The notes beneath the pieces are model-generated. The model was not told where the DNA came from and ran no database searches. It saw nothing but the letters and a program-made list of their open reading frames with translations. DNA of 64,000 nt from an uncultured Candidatus Izemoplasmatales bacterium. Lineage in GTDB: Bacteria; Bacillota_I; Bacilli_A; Izemoplasmatales; Izemoplasmataceae. The DNA is taken from contig CAYNAA010000004.1 in the NCBI GenBank assembly GCA_964395055.1, positions 1,830 through 65,829 on the forward strand, in the 5' to 3' direction. Both the position numbers and the translations under genes were made by a program. Each line of letters opens with the position of its first letter. The first letter of the stretch is position 1. Of this stretch, positions 1 through 6,915 are shown one piece after another.

Positions 1-712
1 TAGGAGGATATAGAAAACCTCCTGGTATGTAGATAACATCATAAATGCTATATACACTTGGATCCATGGATTTCGGGATTGACCATTTGAAAATCCCGGG
101 CGATTGATAATCGTCATCGTCATCGATTAGCGCTGCATTGCCCTTTCCGGGCCATATGGGAATTTCAGGCAAAATAGCCATGGTGGCGTGCCATTCAATT
201 GGCAGAGCCATCATGGCGGTCCATGCAGATTCCTTTGGTGGGGCAATCCGGTTTATCTCTTCGGCCATTCCGCCGGATAGGATTTGAATTTTCTCCCAAG
301 TACGAAAGGATATCTCACCTCTTGCGGTAGGAATCTCAAGGACAATCATATTTCCCCCTTGATACAAGGTGTATCGGGTATTTCCGGTACAAGTACCATA
401 TATCAAAGTGACATCCCATGGACAGTATTCCCCCAAAGTGGGAGTTATGGCGATCCCATTTTCTATATTTGCAGCCCGTTCCCTTCGCCATTGTGCCACT
501 TGGGCATTCACCAATTCTTGCATTGTGGAAATATGCCTCACCTCATCTAACGGGACAACGGTCCCGTGCTTAAAGAAAGCACGGAGCCGCTCAAAAGCGA
601 TTGCCGCTTGTGTGAAGTCCCGATACTCGAAGATGTATTTCTTATCGTTGGCCACATACATGTTCACGTTTTCTTCTCTCATGTCTTCTGTCCTCATGTT
701 TTCTGTCCTCAT
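1..712 (-). CDS. hypothetical protein; C-terminal end lies beyond the left window edge
   Basis: Minus-strand frame is open from ATG 712 to base 1, with in-frame alternative starts at 696, 682 and 661. Begins MRTENMRTEDMREENVNMYVANDKKYIFEY. Missing from the ORF track because it runs off the window. Plus-strand ORFs 284-874 are its shadow frames. Confidence 0.55.
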   Translation of the reverse strand, partial: MRTENMRTEDMREENVNMYVANDKKYIFEYRDFTQAAIAFERLRAFFKHGTVVPLDEVRHISTMQELVNAQVAQWRRERAANIENGIAITPTLGEYCPWDVTLIYGTCTGNTRYTLYQGGNMIVLEIPTARGEISFRTWEKIQILSGGMAEEINRIAPPKESAWTAMMALPIEWHATMAILPEIPIWPGKGNAALIDDDDDYQSPGIFKWSIPKSMDPSVYSIYDVIYIPGGFLYPP

Positions 713-723
713 AGAATATTCTA
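712..723. repeat. TAGAATATTCTA palindrome, exact copy
   Basis: 12/12. Its TAG (723-721, minus strand) is the stop of ORF 721-858. It abuts ATG 712 of the next ORF. Confidence 0.9.
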
Positions 724-858
724 CGACACGTCGAATCCGCTATTGCGGAAAGCCTTTAACTCACTCCAAGTCAATGCCATTTTAACCTCTCCCGGATATG
801 GTAATCCGGGGGCGCCAATCCTGATCGTCCGCATCGCATGGTCAATCCATACCGTCAT
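721..858 (-). CDS. small hypothetical protein (45 aa)
   Basis: Hand translation: MTVWIDHAMRTIRIGAPGLPYPGEVKMALTWSELKAFRNSGFDVS. AGGAG (867-871) lies 8 nt before ATG 858. Below the 60-aa cutoff of the ORF track. Confidence 0.4.
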   Translation of the reverse strand: MTVWIDHAMRTIRIGAPGLPYPGEVKMALTWSELKAFRNSGFDVS

Positions 859-871
859 GATGTTTTCTCCT

Positions 872-883
872 TAGAATATTCTA
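872..883. repeat. TAGAATATTCTA palindrome, exact copy
   Basis: 12/12. On the minus strand it is fused to the SD as TAGAATATTCTAAGGAG, 13 nt before ATG 858. Confidence 0.9.
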
Positions 884-901
884 AGAGTCGTTATGACTCT
901 T
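883..901 (-). promoter_or_regulatory. leader stem-loop (7-bp stem, 5-nt loop)
   Basis: AAGAGTC-ATAAC-GACTCTT on the minus strand, between the predicted promoter at 914-943 and the palindrome/SD. Confidence 0.5.
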
Positions 902-913
902 AACTATGCTCCC

Positions 914-943
914 ATTATAACACAAAGACCGGTCTTGTGTCAA
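914..943 (-). promoter_or_regulatory. sigma70-type consensus promoter reading leftward
   Basis: Minus strand reads TTGACA (943-938), an 18-nt spacer, then TATAAT (919-914) preceded by TGT (extended -10). Confidence 0.7.
925..936. promoter_or_regulatory. putative operator, perfect palindrome AAGACCGGTCTT (in the promoter spacer)
   Basis: 12-bp perfect palindrome inside the -35/-10 spacer. An identical copy lies at 948-959. Confidence 0.55.
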
Positions 944-947
944 GCAT

Positions 948-959
948 AAGACCGGTCTT
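948..959. promoter_or_regulatory. putative operator, perfect palindrome AAGACCGGTCTT (upstream of -35)
   Basis: Identical to 925-936, with centres 23 bp apart. The two copies bracket the -35 hexamer. Confidence 0.55.
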
Positions 960-960
960 T

Positions 961-1034
961 ATTCCTACGCGGGCGTGGGCGCCTTTATTCCCCTACGCGG
1001 GCGTGATTCCTACGTGGGCGTGAGCGCCTTTATT
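961..1034. repeat. GC-rich direct repeats (CCTACG[C/T]GGGCGTG x3; 29-bp unit x2)
   Basis: 14-mers at 964-977, 992-1005 and 1009-1022. GCGCCTTTATT at 979-989 and 1024-1034. The 29-bp unit at 961-989 recurs at 1006-1034 with 2 mismatches. Confidence 0.8.
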
Positions 1035-1035
1035 G

Positions 1036-1047
1036 TAGAATATTCTA
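1036..1047. repeat. TAGAATATTCTA palindrome, exact copy
   Basis: 12/12. Non-coding, between the two repeat families upstream of the 914-943 promoter. Confidence 0.9.
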
Positions 1048-1056
1048 TCCCATACT

Positions 1057-1137
1057 TTTATAATCCGCCCGGATCAGTCCTAATTTATAATCCGCCCAGA
1101 TCAGTCCTAATTTATAATCCGCCCGAATCAGCCCAAT
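1057..1137. repeat. 27-bp direct tandem repeat x3
   Basis: TTTATAATCCGCCCGGATCAGTCCTAA at 1057-1083, 1084-1110 (1 mismatch) and 1111-1137 (more diverged). Confidence 0.85.
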
Positions 1138-1306
1138 CCAAGTTTTCTTACAACCCAAGTTCCCTTGCAATCCGCCTATAACTCAAGTTTTTCCGAAACG
1201 TTTGGAAATAACCTAAATGATGTTGATCTGGTCAACACCACATGTTTTCTTACATAAGCCATGGCCTCTTCACTGGTGAAAAAAGACTTTACCTTTATAT
1301 CAGCAT

Positions 1307-1336
1307 CCAATCATCACTTTTCCAATCATCACTTTT
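1307..1336. repeat. 15-bp tandem repeat x2 (CCAATCATCACTTTT)
   Basis: Copies at 1307-1321 and 1322-1336. A partial third copy runs into the stop codon of ORF 1341-1577. Confidence 0.7.
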
Positions 1337-1340
1337 TCAA

Positions 1341-1577
1341 TCATTCTGGAATCTCTTGCAATAAACCTGGGAAAACTTGAGTAACATATTCTTCATAAAG
1401 CCATTCCTTCAATTGATCTAGATTATCAAGATCAAATATCCCAGATTGACTCTCGTGTACCAAATGAACATACAATGCAATGGCAAAGAAATCTACTGTA
1501 TCTTCGCAAAAATGCGGATCATTTAGGTAGTATACGAAATCTTGGAAAAATTGTTCAGCATCGGTATGCATCAGCAT
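1341..1577 (-). CDS. hypothetical protein (78 aa)
   Basis: ATG 1577 is preceded by AGGAGG. The upstream ORF stops at 1571-1573, giving a compact coupled junction. Confidence 0.6.
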   Translation of the reverse strand: MLMHTDAEQFFQDFVYYLNDPHFCEDTVDFFAIALYVHLVHESQSGIFDLDNLDQLKEWLYEEYVTQVFPGLLQEIPE

Positions 1578-1846
1578 TGTCCTCCTTTATCTAAAGTGTT
1601 CTCATGATCTTTACAATATTGCCAATCCCCTGTCGCCGCGAGAGCTAAAGCTTTCGCAGCATACGATAATTCTCCTTTGCACAAGTATTCATGGATCACG
1701 TAATATAAAACATTACGTGGTGTAAATGTATGGACAGCAGATTTTCTTTCTGTACTCATACATTGAACAGCTTCATGACGATAGTTGAATATCATATTTG
1801 ATGCAATCACTCTTGTCCCTTTAGACATATGAGTAATGAAAAACAT
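1571..1846 (-). CDS. hypothetical protein (91 aa)
   Basis: ATG start with a purine-rich SD-like stretch upstream. Packed against its neighbours on the same strand. Confidence 0.55.
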   Translation of the reverse strand: MFFITHMSKGTRVIASNMIFNYRHEAVQCMSTERKSAVHTFTPRNVLYYVIHEYLCKGELSYAAKALALAATGDWQYCKDHENTLDKGGQC

Positions 1847-1849
1847 GCC

Positions 1850-2077
1850 TTACTTCCTATGAATCTGTAAAGATTTGTATGGGCCACGTTCCCCCATCTT
1901 TTCGACTTGCTCAAACCGAAAACGAGGAAACATAGAATTCAAGTAATTCTTGAGTGCCGCATCGGAACGACACCTACCACGGACATGCTTCAAAAACAAA
2001 ACAATTGTACGCATATCTTCTTCCGTTCGCGGATCTAATACTTCTTGCAAACGTTGCGCATCTTCAAATCGAATCAT
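1850..2077 (-). CDS. hypothetical protein (75 aa)
   Basis: ATG 2077 lies 23 nt downstream of palindrome 2101-2112, with AAAGGA in between. Confidence 0.55.
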   Translation of the reverse strand: MIRFEDAQRLQEVLDPRTEEDMRTIVLFLKHVRGRCRSDAALKNYLNSMFPRFRFEQVEKMGERGPYKSLQIHRK

Positions 2078-2100
2078 TGTTCTATCCTTTCTTTTCCTTT

Positions 2101-2112
2101 TAGAATATTCTA
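2101..2112. repeat. TAGAATATTCTA palindrome, exact copy
   Basis: 12/12. Its TAG (2112-2110, minus strand) is the stop codon of ORF 2110-2295. Confidence 0.9.
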
Positions 2113-2295
2113 ACCACGAAGTCGATCAATCTCTTTTCGTAAATTTCGATTTTCCGCCATCTCATCTGCCCACGCTTGGCGTAATTCCTCAATGCGGGCA
2201 TTTTGATATTGCAATTTCTTAACATAATCTTCATCAGGAAAAAAGGCCTCTAATACTTGTTCAATTTCCTTTAACAAGTGGCTTTTGTCCTTCAT
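2110..2295 (-). CDS. small coiled-coil protein, member of a 3-gene paralogue set
   Basis: 61 aa. Shares ENRNLR and RIEEL with ORF 2549-3109, and KEIDRLR with ORF 2335-2556. Confidence 0.5.
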   Translation of the reverse strand: MKDKSHLLKEIEQVLEAFFPDEDYVKKLQYQNARIEELRQAWADEMAENRNLRKEIDRLRG

Positions 2296-2334
2296 TTTCT
2301 TTCCTCTTCTTAGGTTTTTCTTAGGTCTTTTTTC

Positions 2335-2556
2335 TTAGGTCTTTTTCTTACGAAGCCGATCAATTTCTTTGTCCACCACATCCATAGCACCATGTAATGC
2401 TTCCCATTCCTTGGTTCCACACCATTCTGGGATCATTCGCCATGCTGCCCATGCCGCTGCTGTTTGCTTTATTATTTCACGCAGCCGTTCAATTTCTGCT
2501 ATGGCGCACTCGTGGTGTGCGCGCCAACATTCCTGATAATGGTTTTCATTATTCAT
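2335..2556 (-). CDS. small coiled-coil protein, paralogue set
   Basis: 73 aa. ECWRAHHECAIAEIERLRE parallels DCWRIYWKRAVAEVDRLRT of ORF 2549-3109. ATG 2556 follows AAGGA. Confidence 0.5.
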   Translation of the reverse strand: MNNENHYQECWRAHHECAIAEIERLREIIKQTAAAWAAWRMIPEWCGTKEWEALHGAMDVVDKEIDRLRKKKT

Positions 2557-3109
2557 CGTTTTGATCCTTTTTTCGGTTCAGCGTGGTTTTCAATTCCTCG
2601 ATACGGGAGTTGAAGTTCCCCCGCAGCCGCCGGACCTCATCCACCAACAACCCAAGAAGGTCGAGTAAAGCATCGTCAGTAGTATGAAGGTTATGGCTGT
2701 CTATTATGGGTCGCCAAGATTCGGATTGCGCCGCAATTACTTGGTGCACCAATGGTTCTATCACCGATTTTATGCTCTCACGTTCCGAGTCTAACCCTTT
2801 GGTCATAGCCACCCAGGCTTCATTGCACAGGTATTCTTCCCACAGGTATGTATACCCCGGATTGACAGCTACCTTATTGGGATTAGTGCCATGGCCATTG
2901 TAATACATGGTTTTGATTGCCTGCATCTTAATAGCGTTTCGCAAATTGCGATTTTCTGTTCGCAGCCGATCAACCTCCGCCACAGCGCGTTTCCAGTAAA
3001 TACGCCAACAATCTTCACTCATTGCTCTGGTCATCCTTTTCTCCGGTGTCATCCCACCGGCGCATATACATCCTCCATCCGAAATCCTACCGCTCACGTA
3101 TCGTTGCAT
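2549..3109 (-). CDS. coiled-coil protein, paralogue set (start probably ATG 3034)
   Basis: 186-aa maximal ORF. GGAG sits 6 nt before ATG 3034 (MTRAMSEDCW...). Lies in the GC-rich island. Confidence 0.5.
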   Translation of the reverse strand: MQRYVSGRISDGGCICAGGMTPEKRMTRAMSEDCWRIYWKRAVAEVDRLRTENRNLRNAIKMQAIKTMYYNGHGTNPNKVAVNPGYTYLWEEYLCNEAWVAMTKGLDSERESIKSVIEPLVHQVIAAQSESWRPIIDSHNLHTTDDALLDLLGLLVDEVRRLRGNFNSRIEELKTTLNRKKDQNDE

Positions 3110-3193
3110 ACTCCAGCCAGCGCACCTCGTTTCCTACCCGCACCGGTAGCCACAAAAACTTGCGCACGTCTCCGTAGTTGGGGATTGTCCACC

Positions 3194-3502
3194 TCATGAT
3201 TCGCCCTCCATGATTTCCTTCACGTTCTCATCTACCTTTGCCAACGCCTCGAGCAGCGCGAGTGTGGCAGACTGGGCACGACCGGTATAATAGGAATCTG
3301 TATAAGGCAAGTAAATGCTTGCACGACTCCGGATAATACGCTCAATATGCGGCTCCCCAGATATAAAATTCCAGAGCCATCCCAGCCACCATCCGTCCAC
3401 AGTAACCGTATCTATGCTTTTAGTGGGGTCCGGGGCGATGCACTGCCATCCAGTAAATTTCCAGCAACCACACTCACAAATCCCTACTTTACCCACGCCC
3501 AC
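3194..3502 (-). CDS. hypothetical protein (GC-rich island)
   Basis: GTG start with no clear SD. The translation looks protein-like, whereas the overlapping plus-strand ORFs are S/P/H-rich junk. Confidence 0.35.
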   Translation of the reverse strand: MGVGKVGICECGCWKFTGWQCIAPDPTKSIDTVTVDGWWLGWLWNFISGEPHIERIIRSRASIYLPYTDSYYTGRAQSATLALLEALAKVDENVKEIMEGES

Positions 3503-3553
3503 GGCGCGGCTTCGGGCGTCATACCCACCAGGTGGGCGAGTTCGGCTATCTGG

Positions 3554-3811
3554 TCAGCAGTCATTGTTCTGGCCCTCCATGGTTATTTTTTCTGGTTCCC
3601 ATACTGGGCAGTCCTTTCCGTCCCACGCCCAACACTCTAACCTCTTAGACGTGTCTAGTGCTGCGTGTATGTAGTTAACCTTCGTAAAGGCTGTAGGTAG
3701 TTGAATAGGGTAGGAGCAGGATGTTGTGCAGTCGCTCTTGCGAATGTGCCCATAGCGCCGCTTCATTGTTTCGCGATCCCACCACTTGCATGTACCGCAG
3801 CATTGTCTCAT
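3554..3811 (-). CDS. Cys-rich hypothetical protein (85 aa, GC-rich island)
   Basis: MRQCCGTCKWW... ATGA start/stop overlap with ORF 3808-4188. Confidence 0.5.
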   Translation of the reverse strand: MRQCCGTCKWWDRETMKRRYGHIRKSDCTTSCSYPIQLPTAFTKVNYIHAALDTSKRLECWAWDGKDCPVWEPEKITMEGQNNDC

Positions 3812-4188
3812 TCATCGTCTTTTTCCTTCTTTTCCTGCCACTCGGTATGCACCCCTGCTACCCAGGGCAGCACGTCCGCTAAATCGTGTCCCACACCAAC
3901 ACACAACTCTGTGTATTGTGCATGATCGAAATAGAAGCGCACACCAGCGGCGTCAAACGCCAGTTCGTCTCGGTTGGCCACACGCAGGCCCAACAATGCC
4001 GCGCGCAGCTCGAAAAACTCATGCACCAATGTAGCCACCACATGAGCCCACGGCTGATCCATGCCAATACACACACGGATGTACCGGCCATCATCCCTAG
4101 GAAACTCAAAGTCTCCACCAGCACCACCGCGTGGATAGACGCGGGTGTAGGCGCCATTCACGATCAGGCCCCGGTACCGTTTGCTCAT
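3808..4188 (-). CDS. hypothetical protein (126 aa, GC-rich island)
   Basis: ATGA overlaps at both ends (4185-4188 and 3808-3811) indicate a translationally coupled chain. Confidence 0.55.
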   Translation of the reverse strand: MSKRYRGLIVNGAYTRVYPRGGAGGDFEFPRDDGRYIRVCIGMDQPWAHVVATLVHEFFELRAALLGLRVANRDELAFDAAGVRFYFDHAQYTELCVGVGHDLADVLPWVAGVHTEWQEKKEKDDE

Positions 4189-4970
4189 GATGTTTTTCCC
4201 ATCCGTGCCTCAAGCGCACGGAGTGCCTGGCCGAATTCGTTGTCGTGCCCACAGATGGATGTGATGTGGATAAGTCTGACGTGACCGTAGCGAACTCCAT
4301 TTGGAGCAATTGCTAAATACCCACTTATGCCTATACGCCACCCCGTCGGCCACTCCGGCAGCGGCTCGGGTGGCGGGATAATGCCCATCTCACGCGCGCG
4401 GGCGAGAGCAGCGTGGGCCTCCCATTCTGTGGCGAAAATGCCCTGTAGGTATTCCACAGACATGCACACGTAGAGTTTTCCGTATGGGGTGAGCCAATAC
4501 TTCCCGTCCGTCACATCCCACAGCCCGTCGTCCCGCTCGACCACCTCCCACCCGTCATCGGGTTCGCCGTTCCGCTCGGCCTGCTCCGGCTCATGGTATT
4601 CAATCAGTGCAAGCAGCGCCTCGGCGGCGGTGGCAAACACGTCATTTTCCGAGCACACAGCGCTAGTTTTACCGTCATGGCACACATAGAGATCACTATT
4701 TGCTGGACTCCTGCCATTGGCAATTGCCCAACCACTGGGGTGTCCTCCGGCACGTCGTACCCGAAACACTCCAGACCTCTCGCGTGCATTTACGAGGTCG
4801 CAGAATTTTTCGATCATAGCATCCAGGCTTTGCAAGTCAAAGCAATGGGGTCCATGATGGAGCACCCAAAAATAGGCGCCTTTTGTGTCGCGATTGCCCT
4901 GCACCCCCGCCTGTCCACGCTCCATGTAGCGTATGAGCTTGTTCTCGTCTGCCTGTGCCAAGTTTTTCAT
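4185..4970 (-). CDS. hypothetical protein (261 aa, GC-rich island)
   Basis: Longest ORF of the island. ATG 4970 overlaps the stop of the 35-aa ORF 4967-5074. Confidence 0.6.
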   Translation of the reverse strand: MKNLAQADENKLIRYMERGQAGVQGNRDTKGAYFWVLHHGPHCFDLQSLDAMIEKFCDLVNARERSGVFRVRRAGGHPSGWAIANGRSPANSDLYVCHDGKTSAVCSENDVFATAAEALLALIEYHEPEQAERNGEPDDGWEVVERDDGLWDVTDGKYWLTPYGKLYVCMSVEYLQGIFATEWEAHAALARAREMGIIPPPEPLPEWPTGWRIGISGYLAIAPNGVRYGHVRLIHITSICGHDNEFGQALRALEARMGKTS

Positions 4971-5074
4971 GTCAGTACCTCCAATTGCCGCACCTGGATT
5001 TTGTCACGATTACCCAGAAACAGCATGTCTTCCGCCTGCCCACGCTCCATGTAGCGCAAAATTTTTAGCTCCAT
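4967..5074 (-). CDS. 35-aa ORF, truncated duplicate of the N-terminus of ORF 4185-4970
   Basis: MELKILRYMERGQAEDMLFLGNRDKIQVRQLEVLT compared with NKLIRYMERGQAGVQGNRD. The 25-nt repeat at 5032-5056 and 4907-4931 differs at 1 position. ATG 5074 lies 20 nt after palindrome 5095-5106. Confidence 0.35.
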   Translation of the reverse strand: MELKILRYMERGQAEDMLFLGNRDKIQVRQLEVLT

Positions 5075-5094
5075 AGCTGCCTTCTCTCCAAGGT

Positions 5095-5106
5095 TAGAAT
5101 ATTCTA
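5095..5106. repeat. TAGAATATTCTA palindrome, exact copy
   Basis: 12/12. Marks the right edge of the GC-rich island and lies downstream of the tRNA and its hairpin. Confidence 0.9.
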
Positions 5107-5121
5107 ACTTTTTTCTTTAAG

Positions 5122-5154
5122 GGTACTCCCTCCCTTTTAATGGGAGGGAGTACC
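5122..5154. other. 13-bp GC-rich stem-loop downstream of the tRNA
   Basis: GGTACTCCCTCCC, a 7-nt loop, then GGGAGGGAGTACC. No U-tract follows it on the transcribed (minus) strand. Confidence 0.7.
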
Positions 5155-5169
5155 GATCAATTAAAAAAG

Positions 5170-5256
5170 TGGTAGGCGAGGCGGGGATCGAACCCGCAAG
5201 CCCATACGGGCAAGGGATTTTAAGTCCCTCGTGTATTCCAATTCCACCACTCGCCC
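5170..5256 (-). tRNA. tRNA-Leu (anticodon UAA), class II, CCA encoded
   Basis: Hand-folded. Acceptor GGGCGAG/CTCGCCT. D-arm GTG..CAC with GG in the loop. Anticodon stem AGGGA/TCCCT with loop CTTAAAA. Long variable arm GCCC-GTAT-GGGC. T-arm GCGGG-TTCGATC-CCCGC. Discriminator A, then CCA. 87 nt. Confidence 0.9.
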
Positions 5257-5257
5257 T

Positions 5258-5269
5258 TAGAATATTCTA
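5258..5269. repeat. TAGAATATTCTA palindrome, exact copy
   Basis: 12/12. Ends 1 nt before the 5' end of the tRNA. Confidence 0.9.
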
Positions 5270-5340
5270 TTTTCTCGATATTAGTGCTAACAAAAAAAGC
5301 AGTAGCACAGCTCCTGTTAGCACATAGTTTAGAGCCTCCA

Positions 5341-6417
5341 TTACTCTGAGAGAATGTCATTCACCATCTCCCAAAAGCGATCTGGGTCCTTGTCCCGAGC
5401 TTCTTCAATACGAATAAGCTCATCTTCTAAATCTGGTAATTCTTCCTGAGCAACCTTGTCACCCAGAGCTGCATCTAATTGTCGTGCCAAGATTTGACTA
5501 CGACAAACATTTCGCGCACTTTTCAGTTTCTTTGGCCCCCATGTTTTTGGGGCTTTTTCTTTTCGTGGCTTGTCTTTGTCTGCTCTCTTCTGTTTCAACC
5601 ACTCTTCAGCTTCTTCTTCATTTTTGATACCATCGACTTCGATGGCTGTTGCAGATGTAAACTTGATTGCATCTTTATCGCCATCGCAGTATTGCTTAAA
5701 TTCTTCTTCAATGAGCGAATGCGCTGAAGCGATCCGCTTAAAATACTGCACTTTTCCACGCCATGTTTCCAAACGGGCTTGTTCAATGGTAGTTACCTTC
5801 TTCGATCCCACCATTGTGAACCCGTGCTTTCTCAATTCATCTAAACGAGCATCCAATGCCAGTTTGGCTCGCGAGCCTCCTAGCTTATAAAACAGGGGAG
5901 AAAGGATATTTGCGATCTCACCTTCAGTTCGATTCTGTCGGACATAGCGTTTCACAGCAAGATAGAGCTCAAACATATCGAGCTCTTCTTCACTGCCATG
6001 ATCCATCATAAGGCGCTGTCGCGTTGGCTCATCAAGATTCAAGACAAGACGATAGGGAACCTGTCCCTCGTAGTGCTTCTTGAAAAACTCTGGCTCGTTA
6101 TCCCGGAGCCACATCAAAGCTCGATGACGTAGAAAACCACAAATACCACGCGGCTTCGCATCATCTTTAGTGGTGTTCATATCCCCCACGATCAAGGGAG
6201 TGCGAATAAAACCATCAGCTTTGAGCTCTGCAATTTTTCGTGTCACTCGCTCATCATATTTGTCAGTGCGGCGAACATTCCACTTTGTAGAATAATCTAC
6301 ATCATCGAGATTGAAATAGTGAAGTTCCTTGTCAGTTTCGATTTCGATTTGTGTGTGCAACTCCGCCATTATTTCAGTGTCAGCATTTAATTCTTCTTGT
6401 ACATGCTCAGTGGTCAT
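5341..6417 (-). CDS. ParB/Srx-superfamily N-terminal domain protein (paralogue C)
   Basis: TPLIVGD...GICGFLRHRALMWL matches the ParB-box GxxRxxA pattern. Lysine/glutamate-rich C-terminus. Confidence 0.5.
   Translation of the reverse strand: MTTEHVQEELNADTEIMAELHTQIEIETDKELHYFNLDDVDYSTKWNVRRTDKYDERVTRKIAELKADGFIRTPLIVGDMNTTKDDAKPRGICGFLRHRALMWLRDNEPEFFKKHYEGQVPYRLVLNLDEPTRQRLMMDHGSEEELDMFELYLAVKRYVRQNRTEGEIANILSPLFYKLGGSRAKLALDARLDELRKHGFTMVGSKKVTTIEQARLETWRGKVQYFKRIASAHSLIEEEFKQYCDGDKDAIKFTSATAIEVDGIKNEEEAEEWLKQKRADKDKPRKEKAPKTWGPKKLKSARNVCRSQILARQLDAALGDKVAQEELPDLEDELIRIEEARDKDPDRFWEMVNDILSE
6288..6299. repeat. palindrome variant TAGAATAATCTA (11/12), inside a CDS
   Basis: One mismatch. 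It is the reverse complement of the variant at 6727-6738. Confidence 0.6.
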
Positions 6418-6738: not shown

Positions 6739-6740
6739 CC

Positions 6741-6852
6741 TTTAGCACAAAGTCTTTAGCACAAAGTCTTTAGCACAAAGTCCTCAGCACAAAGTCTTTA
6801 GCATAAAGTCTTTAGCATAAAGTCTTTAGCACAAAGTCTTTAGCATAAAGTC
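6741..6852. repeat. 14-bp direct tandem repeat x8 (TTTAGCACAAAGTC and variants)
   Basis: Eight contiguous units in exact 14-bp register. Variants are C/T at unit position 8, and one unit starts CTC. Lies in the predicted transcribed leader. Confidence 0.9.
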
Positions 6853-6870
6853 TTTCGCCATCATATCTCT

Positions 6871-6900
6871 ATTATATCACAGAAGTAGGTTCAATGTCAA
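6871..6900 (-). promoter_or_regulatory. sigma70-type consensus promoter reading leftward
   Basis: Minus strand reads TTGACA (6900-6895), an 18-nt spacer, then TATAAT (6876-6871) preceded by TGA (extended -10). Confidence 0.7.
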
Positions 6901-6915
6901 GTCTTCCACTATTAT

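Follow-up and report, generated by a model that had tools for sequence, protein, structure and literature searches.

We find that a full-consensus minus-strand promoter of a phage (P1, 943-914) carries two identical copies of the perfect 12-bp palindrome AAGACCGGTCTT, one on either side of its -35 hexamer. In our reading, to which we give a probability of about 0.6, the two copies (O1 and O2) are operators for a dimeric repressor that would block the access of RNA polymerase to a strong, host-type sigma-A promoter. The window, that is, the whole stretch of 64,000 nucleotides analysed here, corresponds to positions 1830-65829 of contig C4, within a 1.76-Mb bin of 122 contigs. The two ends of C4 (72,688 bp) share a direct repeat of 41 nt, which falls within a coding 15-bp repeat, and from this we take C4 to be circular and probably a complete phage genome.

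Anatomy and rarity of the twin palindromes at P1

The minus strand from 960 to 914 reads AAAGACCGGTCTT ATGC TTGACA C AAGACCGGTCTT TGTGT TATAAT. The -35 hexamer TTGACA (938-943, minus) is the consensus, and so is the -10 TATAAT (919-914), which with the preceding TGTGT forms a -16 TRTG or TGn extended -10 (914-924, minus). The spacer measures 18 bp and the promoter scan gave a score of 12/12, so that the predicted core promoter has the composition TTGACA-18-TATAAT plus TGn. O1 (948-959, minus) matches the palindrome exactly and ends 4 bp before the -35, and O2 (925-936, minus) occupies positions 2-13 of the spacer; the distance between the two is 23 bp, both start to start and centre to centre. 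The first-pass annotation had described a full-consensus promoter on the minus strand with identical 12-bp perfect palindromes at this distance, one upstream of the -35 and one within the spacer, and we confirmed this description base for base and by coordinates. The promoter geometry places the putative transcription start at A907, 7 nt past the -10 (905-908, minus). Relative to this predicted start, O1 spans -52 to -41 (centre -46.5) and O2 spans -29 to -18 (centre -23.5), and both symmetric sites would overlap the region contacted by RNA polymerase. An independent Logan assembly of the source run showed 0 differences over positions 600-1500 at a depth of 13. When sought in other sequencing runs, the phage was found in the source sample only and in zero RNA runs.

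The identity of O1 and O2 ends at the edges of the 12-mer, with 3/11 matching flank positions downstream and 2/7 upstream. This confinement to the 12-mer, between unrelated flanks, argues for operators. We rejected an origin of the pair by a tandem 23-bp slippage duplication, as the flanks are unrelated; head-to-tail slippage repeats of 14, 15, 19 and 27 bp are common elsewhere in the phage and are unlike O1/O2. A recombinase core site was also rejected, the phage being without a recombinase and the arms being internally palindromic.

Past the putative start, the P1 transcript would run through the elements that had been listed for it in the first pass (a 7-bp hairpin, a palindrome/SD unit, a 45-aa ORF and a gene that leaves the window), and their order was correct. 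The leader stem-loop AAGAGTC-ATAAC-GACTCTT (881-903, minus) has 7 Watson-Crick pairs, or 9 pairs at ~-10 kcal/mol in RNAfold, and is probably a stabiliser of the mRNA 5' end. It is followed by a site distinct from O1/O2, TAGAATATTCTA (872-883), fused to the SD AAGGAG (872-867; whole unit 867-883, minus). There are 17 exact copies of TAGAATATTCTA in the 1.76-Mb bin, all on the phage contig. Three of them (1036-1047, 872-883 and 712-723) lie at about -135, at +30 and at the stop codon of the 45-aa ORF; since they bracket P1 and its first gene, P1 is probably also controlled by whatever reads this genome-wide site. Upstream, the repeat-rich region 953-1137 (minus) holds three GC-rich CACGCCCRCGTAGG at ~22-bp phasing, the TAGAATATTCTA copy at 1036-1047 and three 27-bp tandem units, which are possible further protein sites or an insulator.

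The first-pass annotation had suggested a search of the complete genome for more copies of the palindrome. Performing this search, we found no further exact copy of AAGACCGGTCTT in the 72.7-kb phage contig or in the 1.76-Mb bin, and O1 and O2 remain the only two, which fits a regulon of a single promoter. The sole site with one mismatch in the bin lies inside an ABC-ATPase gene. Among 200 simulated genomes of the same first-order composition, none contained an identical 12-bp palindrome pair within 40 bp, and we count this in favour of operators. Perfect 12-bp palindromes number 35 in C4 as compared with 23.8 ± 5.1 in the simulations, and 17 of these are TAGAATATTCTA and 2 are O1/O2. Beyond the bin, six other genomes of the same genus had zero copies. 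The 76 other family genomes had 13 exact copies as scattered singles (reversed control, 1), against an expectation of ~4 that is a rough estimate from base composition; no paired or promoter-associated copies were seen in these relatives. In viral collections, AAGACCGGTCTT-N-TTGACA had as its sole match a chance coding match on a GC-rich contig. A literature search for the core AGACCGGTCT returned primers and one unrelated Streptomyces footprint only.

The promoter itself belongs to a recurrent design. The window holds 3 full-consensus TTGACA-N16-19-TATAAT promoters where 0.12 are expected, and P1 has three full-consensus sisters (TTGACA, 17-18 bp, TGTGnTATAAT) that lack such palindromes, two of them with the same 18-bp spacer. 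The palindromes are thus a specific addition to P1, which again argues for operators. Full-consensus sigma-A promoters upstream of an SD and ATG are also common in the bin outside C4 (36 in 1.69 Mb), in line with a promoter of host type. Of these 36 non-C4 promoters (TTGACA-N16-18-TATAAT), 13 lie on a single contig of 57,894 bp, C6, which may be another phage or mobile element. Two of the sister promoters have in common the 11-mer AAGACTTGACA (window 6895-6905; C4 1653-1663), and the half-site AAGAC adjoins their -35; AAGAC has 127 copies in the genome, and the sharing may reflect chance or common descent. We also rejected a link to the 8x14-bp AAAGACTTTRTGCT array (6740-6860) through the shared AAAGAC, because AAGAC is this frequent and the TGTG flank is the -16 promoter motif.

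Proposed repression by a dimer and a possible repressor

The data above show the anatomy of the sequence and that the site is unique, and the searches described below that the cargo is orphan; the start site, the bound protein, the direction of regulation and the nature of the regulator at P1 we infer as follows. P1 would act as a strong early promoter of the host sigma-A type, and each palindrome would take one dimer of a sequence-specific DNA-binding protein, probably with cooperativity given the 23-bp spacing. Dimers bound over -52 to -41 and -29 to -18 would deny RNA polymerase access to the -35, to the spacer and to its upstream contacts, and the two-gene orphan cassette (45 aa and 247 aa) would be shut off after an initial burst. 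The repressor would most likely be encoded by the phage because no host regulon carries AAGACCGGTCTT, and it may perhaps lie in the same leftward transcription unit as P1. Two observations on the pair itself bear on this scheme: the twin perfect palindromes lie on both sides of the -35 in a promoter that scores 12/12 and has an extended -10, and each copy is itself palindromic, as a dimer site needs to be and as a hairpin arm would be only by chance (~1/4096).

The first-pass annotation had proposed occlusion of RNA polymerase by a dimeric HTH protein. The geometry fits this proposal, and so do the host-type consensus promoter and the unique site, but the HTH repressor itself was not found. 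The small HTH genes for which it had suggested a search did not turn up either; Pfam scans of ~85 ORFs of the phage recognised no DNA binders other than a sigma factor and two ParB-like proteins with ParB_N plus HTH_ParB domains. No integrase and no Cro/CI-type HTH, RHH, MerR, TetR or AbrB protein was present among these ORFs. The lack of a recognisable repressor for O1/O2 in this set counts against the operator reading. Other points also weigh against it. The 12-bp sites are short in comparison with classical HTH dimer operators of 14-20 bp, relatives of the cassette and promoter are absent from every collection searched, the twin copies also form a strong RNA hairpin, and in unrelated genomes this twin 12-mer is found as plain hairpins that resemble terminators.

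The best candidate for the repressor, and a weak one, is a winged-helix-like 73-aa ORF immediately downstream, at C4 1606-1385, with a consensus promoter of its own. Its low-confidence model (pLDDT 50) has a helix-helix-helix-hairpin-helix topology, and the top Foldseek matches of this model are almost all winged-helix DNA binders (Sso10a, MntR, MarR, SarZ and OhrR) at TM ~0.6 and E 0.03-0.2, with none at E < 0.03. We regard the 73-aa ORF as a lead from modelling, not as a finding. Its promoter, a fourth full-consensus TTGACA-18-TATAAT with TGTGC (C4 1658-1629), would drive it. Before this promoter stand eight 15-bp tandem repeats GGG(TC/CT)GGCCTTTATA; the region (C4 1629-1785) lies 44-200 nt beyond the left end of the window.

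The closest layout that we know from the literature is that of acr-aca operons, in which one or two inverted repeats lie in the core promoter and an Aca dimer represses by blocking RNA polymerase, and in which the operon must itself include a gene for a DNA-binding protein, usually of the HTH type (PMC9410906, PMC6765145). This precedent for inverted repeats in a core promoter supports operators at P1. The P1 unit likewise has a strong promoter, inverted repeats within the core promoter and small genes downstream, and it matches the auto-repressed acr-aca-type operon proposed in the first pass in layout only; as put there, the comparison is not supported. The DNA-binding gene that belongs to it was not found in the unit: there is no HTH or Aca homologue and no known Acr, and the 45-aa and 247-aa products are orphans with no match in Pfam, PHROGs or NCBIfam. 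A divergent binder that is unrecognisable by sequence may be among these two products. The sites differ as well, being identical 12-bp palindromes at P1, whereas the two repeats of Aca2, IR1 and IR2, are unlike in spacing and affinity, the latter being located in the 5' UTR.

Other systems offer partial parallels. The OR operators of lambda lie 23-24 bp apart from centre to centre, a spacing that allows cooperative dimers. The sites at P1 have a similar distance (~23 bp) and, like those of lambdoid OR/OL, overlap the -35 and spacer of a strong early promoter. They are, however, two identical 12-bp sites and not three graded 17-bp sites, and among the ~85 ORFs scanned the phage has no divergent repressor gene, CI/Cro-type HTH, integrase or other sign of lysogeny. 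We excluded a CI/Cro-type immunity switch at P1 because lysogeny genes are absent from the ~85 ORFs in the Pfam scans. The P1 element also resembles the KorB/KorA system of the IncP plasmid RK2 in that one short palindrome directly precedes the -35 and another site lies within the core promoter, and ParB-like HTH proteins are present in the phage, though unaccompanied by a ParA. In RK2, many promoters carry KorB sites, and such a role would fit the 17-copy TAGAATATTCTA, not the single-promoter AAGACCGGTCTT. With CopG of pMV158 and Arc-Mnt of P22 the P1 unit shares a very small first gene (45 aa) and a -35 region within a symmetric element. RHH proteins bind short sites, and in the MetJ box, AGACGTCT, the arms are AGAC/GTCT, as they are in AAGACCGGTCTT. 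The 45-aa product differs in having no RHH, Arc or CopG match in Pfam. Control of P1 by a ParB paralogue in the manner of KorB, or by an RHH-type binder, would be an analogy. Like a moron, finally, the P1 cassette has its own strong host-type promoter, orphan cargo and a GC-richer stretch, with about 50% GC in a phage of 36-38%; it differs in that several such cassettes stand in series, each with its own repeat family, and no canonical terminator closes the P1 cassette.

Alternative readings of the element

Because each copy is a palindrome, O1 and O2 are also complementary to each other, a pairing that the first-pass annotation had missed. They form a composite near-perfect palindrome of 37 bp (924-960, minus), with 16-nt arms that are complementary at 15/16 positions and a 5-nt centre, CTTGA, inside the -35. 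Beyond the 12-mers themselves, 1 additional pair forms on the outside and 2 on the inside. In RNA that reads through from the upstream genes, which end at 1341, RNAfold predicts a 15+2-bp hairpin (about -19 to -24 kcal/mol) whose loop contains the -35. Folding 76 nt gave an MFE of -29.4 kcal/mol (z = -4.6), and the stem persisted in a 446-nt context. The element therefore contains a stable GC-containing stem-loop of the kind found in Rho-independent terminators. After the full stem the tail is GUGUUAUAAU, or UUUGUGUU if the outer A-U pairs open, and the terminator of the early arm has T10.

These features raise the question of whether O1/O2 act mainly as RNA, the read-through hairpin terminating or pausing transcription and thereby insulating the P1 cassette, or serving as a processing or stability element. 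The stem with its extra complementarity beyond the 12-mers, its persistence in the long fold and its flanks, which are A-rich on the 5' side (AAUAAA) and read UUUGUGUUAU on the 3' side, all point in this direction. The hairpin is also among the eight strongest hairpins with a T-rich tail on the minus strand in a lax scan, and no canonical terminator lies between 1341 and P1. Searching public collections for twin AAGACCGGTCTT with a 5-30-nt gap, we found 46 contigs (21 metagenome and 25 genome) in which the pair is a hairpin, a repeat or coding sequence. Most gaps measure 5-8 nt and several of the matches are textbook bidirectional terminators, e.g. AAAAAGACCGGTCTT-TGAATAA-AAGACCGGTCTTTTTG, but none of the 46 contigs has TTGACA in the gap. 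Such matches make the hairpin a genuine alternative. An RNA role does not require that each arm be a perfect palindrome. The U-tract is poor as compared with the GC stem and T10 of the early-arm terminator, the terminator scan made no call here, and a terminator 380 nt past the last gene would be oddly placed. The position of the -35 exactly in the loop, with the -10 exactly 18 bp on, suggests that a promoter shaped the element. Since palindromic arms are unneeded in RNA, the U-tract is poor, the scan made no call and the hexamers fit exactly around the copies, we rank a mainly RNA function second to operators and consider it unlikely. The RNA evidence is in any case compatible with a dual role and is not exclusive.

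Such a dual role can be sketched, though we hold it to be improbable in this specific form. As DNA, the 37-bp element would be a twin operator for a repressor whose fold is unrecognisable by sequence; as read-through RNA, it would form a terminator hairpin that has an insulating effect and holds the -35 in the loop. P1 would then act as a burst promoter that insulates and limits itself, and the 45-aa and 247-aa orphans under its control would make up a new cassette directed against the host or its defences.

It is similarly improbable that O1/O2 bind a phage protein whose main job is other than simple occlusion, such as a ParB-like paralogue acting in the style of KorB, or an activator of the MerR type that binds the spacer. 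The two Pfam-confirmed ParB_N plus HTH_ParB proteins of the phage would be candidate binders, and AAGACCGGTCTT and TAGAATATTCTA share the arms AGA-N4-TCT, as would suit paralogous proteins. In favour we also count that ParB, KorB and Noc recognise short palindromes, 13-16 bp long and CG-rich at the centre, and that O1 lies directly upstream of the -35, as class I KorB operators do. For MerR, the dyad centred in an 18-bp spacer resembles MerR promoters. However, only 3/6 half-site positions are shared between the two sites, which is expected by chance in ~17% of cases, and nothing links either ParB paralogue to O1/O2. No MerR-family protein was found among the ORFs scanned. A full-consensus promoter needs no activation, and the 18-bp spacer works at two palindrome-free sister promoters, so that an activator is unneeded.

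In MAGs of Gracilibacteria and Peribacteria, twin AAGACCGGTCTT with a 5-8-nt gap recurs many times (contigs L045 2913-3180, L039 2619-2647, L035, L043, L046, L049, L056 and L058), and five further contigs of the Peribacteria MAG of L039 also carry it (L044, L048, L052, L053 and L055). One such site is a tandem array with A8 spacers, and one copy lies in frame within a HemN-like radical-SAM gene in code 25 (...QSIQDRSFKKTGLEKPLL...). In these genomes the twin 12-mer looks like a small mobile palindromic element. On an unrelated metagenome contig (L013 1929-1976), the interval separating a DUF6429 gene from a 185-aa orphan contains CGGCCAAGACCGGTCTTTGGCTCA twice, as a direct repeat of 24 bp, which gives an operator-like twin palindrome with 24-bp spacing. 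From the repeat-like hairpins of the MAGs one could argue that the twin palindrome at P1 has no regulatory role and is the remnant of a mobile palindromic element, or else a chance structure flanking the -35. We consider this quite improbable. The MAG elements have gaps of 5-8 nt, none with TTGACA; neither the phage nor the bin, both of which use the standard genetic code, has a further copy; the precision with which -35, spacer and -10 fit around the copies argues for selection; and the simulations, with 0 such pairs in 200 genomes, speak against chance.

Least probable is a host transcription factor that would bind O1/O2 and wire the phage cassette to a host signal, as the host-type P1 and the mild over-representation of the 12-mer in family genomes might suggest. 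Against this, AAGACCGGTCTT occurs nowhere else in the bin in exact form and only once with one mismatch, in a coding region; the six genomes of the genus have none, paired or promoter-associated copies were not seen in relatives, and the host is assigned by binning only.

An orphan cassette in the early arm of the phage

C4 belongs to a tailed phage, in which Pfam finds a P22-like coat protein, a GpA-type large terminase, a holin, an amidase, a family-A DNA polymerase, helicases, a ligase, an RNase H and a D12 adenine methylase. It looks virulent from its sequence because no integrase or CI-type repressor is present in the ~85 ORFs scanned, and the mention of lysogeny in the first-pass annotation is doubtful for the same reason. 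Nearly all genes lie on the minus strand. The early arm starts at ~27,000, extends leftwards past the window start and ends at ~C4 72,400 in a canonical terminator with a GC stem and T10. P1 lies near the distal end of this arm, where the local GC content is 42-50% as compared with 34-40% elsewhere in the phage. Past the early-arm terminator, C4 71,460-72,400 is ~900 bp of non-coding DNA with at least 5 short repeat families, preceding the gene upstream of the large terminase (probably the small terminase), and is a candidate pac or ori region.

The first gene after P1 is the 45-aa ORF (721-858, minus), an orphan whose TAG stop lies inside the TAGAATATTCTA copy at 712-723. The second (1-712, minus) encodes 247 aa when counted from the first ATG (242 aa as called) and continues 31 nt beyond the window start to end at C4 1798. 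Its opening (668-712) consists of three 15-bp tandem units, ATGAGGACAGAARAC, translated as MRTEN-MRTED-MREEN, and the three in-frame ATG codons in these units make the true start of the 247-aa protein ambiguous. No terminator follows the 247-aa ORF; instead come another TAGAATATTCTA, eight 15-bp repeats, the consensus promoter and the 73-aa ORF, and then more small ORFs as far as the early-arm terminator. Two paralogous promoter-leader modules, at C4 890-1000 and 1320-1400, have a 13-bp variant palindrome TAGAATAATTCTA, TTGACA and AAGGTCTATG, and both have a GC-rich hairpin and a GGAyAGAGTCATG start context; in one of them the -10 was lost through deletion.

Both products of the P1 cassette are orphans, with zero family matches in Pfam, PHROGs and NCBIfam. 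A CopG- or Arc-like identity of the 45-aa ORF was rejected, as it has neither an RHH pattern nor a Pfam match; its middle is rich in Pro and Gly (GAPGLPYPGE), and the strand-helix-helix pattern does not fit. A word-indexed search of 5.8 billion clustered proteins with the 45-aa, 247-aa and 73-aa proteins returned only the query itself. In a full HMMER search, the 247-aa protein had a single remote homologue among 1.84 billion representatives, P0002, with which it is 37% identical over residues 32-177 (E = 2e-8). The gene of P0002 lies on a bacterial chromosome contig (L012 8001-9909, at the contig end) next to an N6/N4 DNA methyltransferase, and its promoter is near-consensus and without palindromes. 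Upstream of this locus is a 700-bp intergenic region with long inverted repeats. The methyltransferase neighbour suggests nothing firm about the function of the 247-aa protein. The AlphaFold model of the latter, built from a two-sequence alignment, had a pLDDT of 35 and was unusable. We found no related loci through the 247-aa and 358-aa proteins, no relatives of positions 1-6000 among phages by megablast, and no relatives of the cassette or promoter in 77 family genomes by DNA search. The relatives of the terminase are only 43-53% identical, and two such records are without a full-consensus promoter.

Occlusion of a promoter by dimers on palindromic operators is textbook regulation, and the P1 element adds no new principle to it. 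It represents one more case of a familiar design, found in a phage whose regulators cannot be recognised from their sequences. If O1 and O2 are operators, the phage has marked out one orphan cassette for tight and dedicated control. This would point to genes whose expression is required for a short time and whose excess is costly, for instance those for host take-over or anti-defence, and the exact 12-bp site would be a clean bait for a repressor that sequence profiles miss.
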